NCBI GenBank assembly: GCA_947500555.1
Contig: CANMSE010000006.1
Span: 66,388 to 130,387 of the forward strand
Reading direction: 5' to 3'
Length of the DNA: 64,000 nucleotides
From: an uncultured Fulvivirga sp.
GTDB lineage: Bacteria > Bacteroidota > Bacteroidia > Cytophagales > Cyclobacteriaceae
A program made the position numbers and the translations under genes. This document shows, piece by piece, positions 28,923 through 30,759 of the stretch (within the stretch, counting starts at the first letter, position 1; each line of letters starts with the position of its first letter). Under the pieces are notes generated by a model that had not been told where the DNA came from, ran no database searches, and worked only from the letters and a program-made list of their open reading frames with translations.

Positions 28923-29309
28923 ATGAAAAACGTGGTGATTATTATCTTTTTAATATTCTGTAAAACTAGTTTAGTTTTTGGGCAGGTGGATAACAATTGT
29001 GACTTGAAAATGAAAGTCGTCAACAGGACTCCTTATTATATCGATCAGTTAGTTTTCGGAAAGACTAAGATACTAGAAATCAAAAGCAATAAGACCTCTA
29101 GTCAAATTTGTTTAGATAAGGTCAAAACTCAAATAGGCTATGATCTTCTATATCGCAAAAATCGTTTTCTGTTTAATCAGAAGAAAAAGGAAGCGGGAGT
29201 ATTGATCGATTTTTTCGGGAAATTAGAAATAACAGAGGGGAATTTTTTGCTTGTTCTGACCCTAGATTCTGAAGGTGAATTTGACTTTGATCTGATAAAC
29301 AGGCCATAA
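28923..29309 (+). CDS. Secreted hypothetical protein
   Basis: ORF with signal peptide. No recognised domain. Confidence 0.45.
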   Translation: MKNVVIIIFLIFCKTSLVFGQVDNNCDLKMKVVNRTPYYIDQLVFGKTKILEIKSNKTSSQICLDKVKTQIGYDLLYRKNRFLFNQKKKEAGVLIDFFGKLEITEGNFLLVLTLDSEGEFDFDLINRP

Positions 29310-29311
29310 TT

Positions 29312-29981
29312 CGAGTAGACGGCCCGACTAAATTAGTCGGGGTGCGCCTCTCACACCACCCAGCCCTTCCTTCGTCAGGACAGGCCAAGCAGTTCTCGTA
29401 CTGGGCGGTTCGTAAAGCATACATTGCCGCTCTTTACACCAGCAGTGCTTTCCGCTACTTCTAGGATAAGGCTACACAAAGGCTCCTTATCGAATTTTCA
29501 CTTCGCAATACGTTCAGCCCTTCACTACCTTGTGAGACCTCCCCGCTTTTAGCAGAGCTCGTTACCAATAGTTACTATGGCTTCTGCTGACTTCTCTTGG
29601 ATGTTCACGACATCCGGAGATCTCCCCAGGTAAGGGCATATTCCTTTCCCCAATATCCACTGGATCTACTCTAAAGACTCTTGATAGTTGCCTACCCTTG
29701 AGACGTCAGTATGATCCCGTAACAAGTACGGGACAGGTCGTGCTACCTCATCCAACCTTTACAGCCTCCGTATCCAGTTCCTGTTCGTTGGAACAGGGGT
29801 TTGCAGTCTCGCTTCCTTCAGTGCATACCTCACGGTAAACCTCCTTGCCACTTGCTAATACTTCGGGGCACAGCCTGTCCCGTTGAAGAACGGGAACCCC
29901 CGCATATAAGGGACTAGGATTTCTCCGCACCCTCTGGAATAATTTGGCATCTTCGATACCAGATGCCCATGCTGGGCACAC
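29312..29981 (-). ncRNA. ORF-less group II intron-like ribozyme RNA (class C-like); 3' boundary approximate
   Basis: GC-rich, ORF-free block. The minus strand begins GTGTGCCCAGCATGGG (GUGYG 5' end). It contains CTGAAGGAAGCGAGACTGCAAACC, CCCTTACCTGGGGAG, AGAAGTCAGCAGAAGCCATAGTA and GAACCGCC...GGTGGTGTG, which I recall as conserved blocks of the Oceanobacillus iheyensis IIC intron. No reverse transcriptase ORF. Confidence 0.72.
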
Positions 29982-30174
29982 ACAAATAATAAGCTCAATG
30001 AGCAAACTGAGTTACAAACAAAATTCAGCGGAAACAGTAACTTTAAATCAATTGGAAAGGGTATGCTAACTGAGCTACGAGCATTCTTCAGTGCAAAACA
30101 TTAACTTCAGAATCAACTGAAAGAATATAAACATGTGTTTGTTATTTAGATGTTAATTTATAATTATTATATCT

Positions 30175-30759
30175 ATGGACAGACTGCTTCTACAAAGCCT
30201 TTTAAGACACATTTCGTTGGATAGTCAGGAAATTGAACTTATTGCCTCCTTTTTTAAATCAAAACATATAAAAAAGAAAAACTACTTACTAAGGGAAGGT
30301 GAAACTTTTCGCTATGCTAGTTACGTAAAGCAAGGTTGTTTTGTAATGTATTCGTCAGATAGAACCGGAAAAAACCACGTGACCCAAATAGCGGTTGAAG
30401 GCTGGTGGTCTGGAGATATCTATAGCTTTCTTTCACAAAAACCTTCATCCTTCTTTGTTGAAGCACTTGAAGATTCAGAAGTTCTTCAAGTGAGTAAAGA
30501 TGAACTGGAACAGTTATATGTTCTGGTTCCAAAAATGGAGCGTTATTTTAGAATCCTGGTACAGAATGCATATGTCAGTTTCCAAGATCGAGTATTATCT
30601 TCAATGAATTCTTCTGCTCTTGAGCGCTACCTGGAATTTATTAAAAAGTACCCGAACCTTGTACAAAGGGTACCATTATATACTATTGCTTCCTATCTTG
30701 GAATAAGACCAGAAGTTCTAAGTAGACTGAGAAAAAAGCTTACAACCGAGCTTTCTTGA
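30175..30759 (+). CDS. Crp/Fnr-family transcriptional regulator
   Basis: cNMP-binding-like N-terminus (KKKNYLLREGE...YVKQGCF) and C-terminal HTH (IASYLGIRPEVLSRLRKK). Confidence 0.85.
   Translation: MDRLLLQSLLRHISLDSQEIELIASFFKSKHIKKKNYLLREGETFRYASYVKQGCFVMYSSDRTGKNHVTQIAVEGWWSGDIYSFLSQKPSSFFVEALEDSEVLQVSKDELEQLYVLVPKMERYFRILVQNAYVSFQDRVLSSMNSSALERYLEFIKKYPNLVQRVPLYTIASYLGIRPEVLSRLRKKLTTELS

Follow-up and report, generated by a model that had tools for sequence, protein, structure and literature searches.

A probable branched form of domain V in an ORF-less IIC-type group II intron and its relatives in Bacteroidota

The window, as we call the whole 64-kb stretch of DNA analysed, carries on its minus strand an element of ~672 nt with a IIC-type core, which we read, with a probability of about 0.75, as an ORF-less IIC-type group II intron whose domain V (D5) is genuine and has a lineage-specific branched form. 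An earlier note on this DNA had reported that CCGCCCAG (29408-29401) can pair with CUGGGUGG (29363-29356) in eight base pairs including one G-U, with the two strands 37 nt apart (29400-29364), in the register of a IIC domain V with a CGC triad. It offered three explanations: an unusual three-way junction, a disrupted domain or a wrong register. Direct reading of the sequence confirmed the pairing and the spacing, and conservation and covariation across more than 130 distinct relatives speak for the three-way junction.

The intron and its domains V and VI

Rfam searches revealed matches above gathering to RF02001 (group-II-D1D4-3; 95.6 bits at 29839-29635) and RF01998 (group-II-D1D4-1; 45.4 bits at 29611-29517). 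D1 and the J2/3-D3 region of the intron fit the Rfam consensus, domains I-III are homologous to known introns, and GUGYG is present at the 5' end. The intron ends were placed by alignment to relatives, whose 5' sequence matches the window at 29981. The scores of D1-D3 and D6 are similar to those of relatives. The gap from one plus-strand ORF (28923..29309) to the next (30175..30759) is taken up by the intron, which is antisense to both; the stop codon TAA of the first ORF (29307-29309) abuts or overlaps the last intron bases on the opposite strand. Neither RT-like sequence, an ORF with RT similarity nor a second copy of the element was found in the 64-kb window, and a search of a phage collection gave no match.

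Table 1. Features of the intron on the minus strand of the window
Feature	Position	Strand	Observation
Whole ORF-less group II (IIC-type) intron RNA (probable)	~29309..29981	minus	5' GUGUGCCC at 29981, 3' ...CUACUCGAAU at ~29309
D5 lower helix, 5' strand CCGCCCAGU	29400..29408	minus	aligns to CCGCCGUAU of canonical relatives
CGC catalytic-triad positions	29407-29405	minus	align with triad positions of canonical relatives
UACGAGA, nearly invariant	29394..29400	minus	invariant in alignment A1
CUUGG, site of the canonical AC bulge	29385..29389	minus	at least 90% conserved in 84 type-A sequences, unconstrained by the search pattern
CCUG linker (relatives: CCUG or UUUA)	29381..29384	minus	
Inserted hairpin UCCU-GA-CGAAG-GA-AGGG	29364..29380	minus	4-bp stem, tandem G.A/A.G, short cap
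D5 lower helix, 3' strand GCUGGGUGG	29356..29364	minus	complementary to 29408-29400
Domain VI	29312..29353	minus	MFE fold, family alignment and RF00029 alignment of L001 agree
Bulged adenosine, candidate branch point	29316	minus	column at least 90% A in 84 sequences

The register of D5 was derived from canonical relatives. A distant blastn search of the element against plasmids detected relatives in Persicobacter, Chryseobacterium, Tenacibaculum and Adhaeribacter; five of them were aligned with the window (alignment A1). Four are ORF-less (L001-L004) and one carries ltrA (L005, Adhaeribacter swui plasmid NZ_CP055154.1), and all five have a canonical D5-D6 that matches RF00029 with 30-40 bits. 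The RF00029 alignment of L001 sets the register as CCGCCGUAU-ACGAGACCCGU-AC-GUACGGUGG. The window flanks CGAACCGCC...GGUGGUGUGAGAGGCGCAC and UACGAGA match the D5-D6 of L001-L005 column for column, so the lower-helix pairing is not a chance one and the register with its CGC triad, as proposed in the earlier note, is right. A misplaced register is excluded by this alignment, and we give next to no credence to a canonical D5 elsewhere in the element. An AGC-containing, hairpin-like stretch, GAGCGG...CCGCCC, does lie just upstream (~29432-29402), but it is unconserved in relatives, in contrast to the conserved D5 flanks, and the covariance model RF00029 (D5/D6), run over the 1-kb segment 29150-30150, detected no match even at E<=10 and thus no canonical D5 elsewhere in the element.

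A ninth pair, U-G 29400/29364, may extend the lower helix, in which the CGC triad is paired with GUG 29357-29355. Compared with the canonical relatives in alignment A1, the D5 of the window is longer by ~22 nt, placed after the upper helix and before the lower-helix 3' strand. The AC bulge is replaced by UU in the subtype to which the window belongs (type A, see below), and the upper helix is down to two pairs, C29398-G29390 and G29397-U29391. The insert had been thought to form two hairpins. The first, CAGU-ACGAGA-ACUG, is unconserved, as relatives read GUAU...CCCG there; the second exists, but its proposed register CCUGUCC/GGAAGGG differs from the covarying one, (G)UCCU-GA...GA-AGGG(C) at 29381-29363. 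RNAfold favoured an alternative 4-bp upper helix, CGAG/CUUG, on which the invariance of ACGAGA leaves covariation no say. The MFE fold of the full context pairs ACUGCUUGGCCU with GGGCUGGGUGGU; this pairing was dropped, since relatives cannot form it and it is lost from a fold of D5 by itself, whereas the distal lower helix is kept in the D5 segment folded alone.

Domain VI consists of a basal helix (UGAG/CUCG), a middle helix (AGGCG/CGUCU) and a distal 8-bp hairpin, CCCGACUA-AUU-UAGUCGGG (29341-29323); its basal part, UGAGAGGCG/CGUCU-A-CUCG, pairs 29353-29345 with 29321-29312. The distal hairpin had been taken for a D6 analogue with no obvious bulged branch-point A, an arrangement thought to fit hydrolytic chemistry. 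The hairpin is present, but it is only the distal tip of D6. A29316, nearly invariant in 84 relatives, is bulged from the basal part and corresponds to the bulged A in the RF00029 consensus CUACCCcAu. It is followed by CUCGAAU, which gives a spacer from the A to the 3' end of 7 nt in the window and 6 nt in relatives, the 3' tail being AAU in the window and AU in relatives; a spacing of 6-7 nt is typical of IIC introns (PMC4748821). IIC introns tend toward hydrolysis in vitro (PMC4748821, PMC7161350). With a candidate branch-point A in place, however, a missing branch point can no longer argue for hydrolytic chemistry, which cannot be inferred from the sequence of this D6.

A mark of class C introns is insertion just downstream of a terminator-like stem-loop. 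Upstream of the window intron a weak CUCAG/UUGAG stem lies ~10 nt away. Among relatives, some copies follow strong, terminator-like hairpins (L084, L181, L239, L085, L023), and many others have no hairpin there but a conserved AT-rich motif: about 70 5' flanks from unrelated genomes (e.g. L144, L155, L198, L007) read GC(A/T)AT...TTATATAC-N3-TGT directly before GUGUGCC. A degenerate version of this motif, GAGCUUAUUAUUUGU, is found at 29982-30010 of the window. The flank pattern suggests two types of target or, alternatively, that the element includes a promoter or 5' extension of its own.

Relatives with an insert in domain V

Searches with the DNA pattern GAACCGC-N4-TACGAGA-N15-45-GTGGTGTGAG, which excludes the canonical spacing of 12, revealed at least 114 matching stretches in a collection with one genome per species and at least 120 in metagenomes. 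The genome matches listed are almost all from Bacteroidota (Flavobacteriales, Cytophagales, Bacteroidales, Chitinophagales and Saprospiraceae), with a few MAG contigs outside the phylum that are probably mis-binned. Among the matches listed, UACGAGA and the 3' strand are 15-43 nt apart, most often 22-24 or 34-37 nt, and at least 161 inserts are distinct. RF00029 matched at none of the insert-bearing D5 sites of eight relatives at E<=1. Of 400 genomes sampled evenly from the phylum, six had the canonical pattern, and apart from the centre genome none had the insert pattern; the family is patchy, and a sample of this size is too small for a rate.

The inserts fall into three main forms. Type A, the form of the window, reads ...ACGAGA-CCCG-CUUGG-YYUR-YCCU-GA-cap-GA-AGGR-UAC-GGUGG, and type B reads ...CCCGU-AC-AG-CCUG-plain hairpin-UAC-GGUGG, with the canonical upper helix and the AC bulge retained. 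In short forms, e.g. L071, a 12-nt palindromic hairpin is placed exactly between the AC bulge and GUAC of a canonical D5. The cap variant of the window, GA-CGAAG-GA, is also present in Psychroflexus and in a Flavobacteriaceae MAG (G002), which holds five copies of the window subtype, one 22-nt form and two canonical copies. Several genomes have multiple copies, and we count this sign of recent spread in favour of the branched domain being genuine.

Among the copies that could be classified, 43 are ORF-less (~160-200 nt from J2/3 to D5) and 19 have a D4 of a size to hold an intron-encoded protein (IEP); full ORF-less elements measure ~600-810 nt. At 15 loci, only 240-476 nt separate the 5' GUGUGCC from the insert-bearing D5-D6, and these may be internally deleted mini-introns or false assignments of the 5' end. 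Four copies (L044, L063, L134, L224) show a further insertion of ~20-45 nt in basal D6, right after GAGAGG, and that of L224 holds a second CUGAGCUUGUCGA motif like that of the D5 insert. At six loci (L004, L047, L130, L148, L155, L212) the end of an ORF-less element, ...CUACUCGAU, abuts GUGUGCUGUGAG, the 5' end of a different intron, giving tandem head-to-tail introns; where Rfam was run (L004, L155), the second intron was of the RF01999 type with its own canonical D5.

Intact ORFs of 414-436 aa end just before, or a few bases into, the insert-bearing D5 at eight loci (L007, L008, L031, L043, L071, L081, L097, L208). All six of the encoded proteins tested (420-436 aa) matched Pfam RVT_1 and GIIM; they belong to type A (L031, L043, L081), type B (L208) and short forms (L007, L071). 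Pfam detected no endonuclease domain in the ~430-aa RT+X proteins of relatives. Other IEP-bearing copies are frameshifted: in the type-A copy L053 (OY781463.1) the IEP is split into two overlapping ORFs (227 and 248 aa), the likely result of a frameshift, and the same chromosome also carries two sister copies. In the MAG G002, an intron with an intact IEP and a canonical D5 stands beside type-A copies, one of them with a decayed IEP. Because intact RT-maturase genes adjoin such D5s in several introns, a branched D5 is, as judged from sequence, probably compatible with activity.

Covariation and alternative readings

Since UACGAGA and the triad helix were fixed by the search pattern, no covariation is possible there in this sample; UACGAGA is nearly unchanged also in 11 extra copies found outside the pattern, and ACGAGA never varies. 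We analysed 84 type-A D5-D6 sequences (A2) and 133 distinct D5s of types A and B (A3). Among the positions of the insert that the pattern left unconstrained, a G of CUUGG, CUGA and one A are invariant in A2, and CUUGG, GA and a G reach at least 90%; the CUGA...GAAG core of the insert hairpin is invariant or at least 90% conserved. Covariation in A2 was found for pairs of the lower helix (CG 50/UA 22; AU 72/GC 8), for one pair of the insert stem (CG 72/AU 8) and for the basal and middle helices of D6 (AU 73/GC 8; GU 64/GC 10/CG 8).

The larger alignment A3 contains 120 double-change cells. Shuffles gave 40.7 +/- 4.5 (none of 500 reached the observed number), and slid controls did not exceed 28. 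Double changes occur in each of the five insert-stem pairs, e.g. columns 39-63 (CG 105/AU 8/UG 5/GU 3/UA 3), 40-62 (CG 118/UA 4) and 41-60 (UA 86/CG 28). The distal 3' strand covaries with the 5' strand (columns 10-69, CG 70/UA 41), and the upper-helix pairs are CG in 129 of 133 sequences and GC in 124 with GU in 7. The lower helix and the inserted hairpin therefore both covary across homologous copies, and the insert is not a private disruption. The thermodynamic z of the insert hairpin is strong only in type B, the type-A median of -0.5 being uninformative. The top two pairs of the lower helix need the same 3' nucleotides as the bottom two pairs of the insert stem, and the two options fit the data about equally, as is expected at a three-way junction.

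The window copy itself has CCCAGU/GCUGGG in its lower helix where the family consensus has CCGUAU/GUACGG, which amounts to three compensatory double changes (C-G, A-U and G-C in place of G-C, U-A and A-U) and argues that the helix across the insert was maintained in its lineage. This bears on the reading of the insert as a disruption, by which the window copy, and perhaps ORF-less members generally, would be dead relics without a catalytic D5. Such a reading, which we hold to be unlikely, could draw on the missing RF00029 match, on a single copy without an IEP in the 64-kb window, on the position antisense between two plus-strand genes, and on the weak upper helix with its lost AC bulge. In canonical introns, metal binding involves the bulge of D5 (from a U6/group II comparison cited in PMC4424553), and for this reason we counted the weak upper helix and UU for AC against the branched domain. 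The disruption is contradicted by the compensatory changes and by intact RT-maturase introns of the same design, and further by the module itself, whose conservation in many Bacteroidota families includes invariant positions and stems that covary, and by D1-D3 and D6 regions that score like those of relatives. The conserved core and the compensated D5 of the window copy argue against simple decay; from its sequence, this copy would be either a non-autonomous intron served in trans or a stand-alone HYER-like ribozyme (see below).

In the branched D5 as we read it, the base is retained: both the lower helix of 9 bp, which bears the CGC triad, and the conserved segment UACGAGA are in place. On the 3' strand, a module of ~26 nt consisting of CUUGG, a 4-nt linker and a short tandem-G.A hairpin has been added at the site of the 2-nt AC bulge of canonical relatives. 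D5 thereby becomes a three-way junction of the lower helix, a vestigial upper helix and the inserted hairpin, followed by a normal D6 with its bulged A. The branched domain would still form the metal-binding catalytic core, and the side hairpin may project outward as a peripheral module that makes a tertiary or protein contact or is a tolerated expansion segment.

An alternative that we consider rather improbable is a bistable D5, in which CCAG (29404-29401) has two possible partners, the distal CUGG, for a lower helix of canonical kind, and the proximal UUGG within CUUGG, and in which the insert acts as a conformational switch gating catalysis; the proximal state would leave only a triad helix of 4-5 bp and two branches. 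The window can indeed form five distal or four proximal pairs, and CUUGG is at least 90% conserved even where the 5' strand offers it no pairing. In nine relatives of type A (L009, L077, L100, L111, L123, L214, L234, L067, L107), with CAAGU, CAGGU or CCAGU as 5' strand, the distal strand is non-complementary and only the proximal CUUGG could serve as partner. Over the 133 sequences of A3, however, the covarying partner is the distal strand, the proximal segment of type B shows no covariation with the 5' strand, most type-A sequences cannot form the proximal pairing, and D5 folded alone keeps the distal helix. As a minority of type-A copies pair proximally and the window can do both, the junction geometry is not unique. 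It is conceivable, with a small chance of being correct, that two alternative 3' strands of D5 form a natural conformational switch in the catalytic centre, which in ORF-less copies would gate a protein-free HYER-like activity, the side hairpin replacing contacts of other domains or of the maturase.

Returning to the branched D5, we looked at the linker and at the history of the insert. Linker positions 1 and 4 (29384 and 29381 of the window), with two nucleotides between them, covary in Watson-Crick fashion (CG 29, UA 9, AU 2), which could mean that two variants are linked by phylogeny or that an unusual local pair forms. When mutual information was scanned over 46 near-full elements, no convincing long-range partner of the linker or the insert emerged, only the i/i+3 covariation within the linker. 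On an approximate tree of D1-D4 (nhmmer-anchored alignment, median support 0.89), the D5 types require 21 changes over 53 tips, compared with a shuffled mean of 24.8, and 2.2% of shuffles are as low. The types are interspersed on this tree and a single origin of the insert is unsupported; the scatter suggests that the D5 module was often gained, lost or exchanged among co-resident introns, and it could partly reflect decay products.

Comparison with known introns and ribozymes

In group II introns, D5 is described as a small catalytic domain of high conservation and as the counterpart of the internal stem-loop of spliceosomal U6 (PMC4424553, PMC9294222). A large natural family that tolerates and conserves a hairpin at the D5 bulge, including members with intact RT-maturase genes, would point to an unexpected plasticity of the active site, and the bulge might be a place where a cargo or regulatory module is tolerated in engineered introns or HYER-type ribozymes. 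According to Zimmerly and Semper, ORF-less introns could have escaped notice only with a domain V unlike those already known (PMC4424553). Surveys that locate introns via RF00029, as a large one does (PMC8919778), would miss the branched-D5 family, which makes it a blind spot. A search of largely open-access literature turned up no account of an insertion in D5 or of a D5 built as a three-way junction; an earlier description may exist, e.g. among HYER, and the evidence for novelty is weak.

With canonical IIC introns, of which O.i.I1 and B.h.I1 are examples (class C; PMC4748821, PMC1702495), the window element shares the 5' GUGUG, the D1-D3 homology (RF02001, RF01998), the CGC triad in GAACCGCC...GGUGGUGUG, and a D6 with a bulged A, a basal helix of 3-4 bp and 6-7 nt from the A to the 3' end; IIC introns have a compact RT-maturase IEP that lacks an endonuclease domain, and relatives of the window element encode RT+X proteins of ~430 aa. 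In contrast to the linear canonical D5 of ~34 nt with its 2-nt 3' bulge, the D5 of the window is branched and has ~57 nt, CUUGG, linker and hairpin take the place of the bulge, RF00029 is blind to it, and the window copy is ORF-less.

HYER (hydrolytic endonucleolytic ribozymes; Liu et al., Science 2024) are described in citing papers (e.g. PMC12990946) as RNAs of ~600-640 nt derived from group IIC, which lack an ORF and occur on their own in genomes; sequence-specific hydrolytic cleavage of RNA/DNA in trans is ascribed to them. Being ORF-less, IIC-type and ~672 nt long, the window element resembles them by this description, and its canonical-D5 relatives measure ~600-640 nt. In B.c.I4-type introns, a 'domain VII' extension of 53-56 nt after D6 shifts the 3' splice site (PMC1865049, PMC2691827). 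The insert of the window is likewise a lineage-specific, conserved stem-loop added to a conserved 3' end; unlike the addition in that active family, which follows D6, it lies inside D5, at the catalytic bulge.
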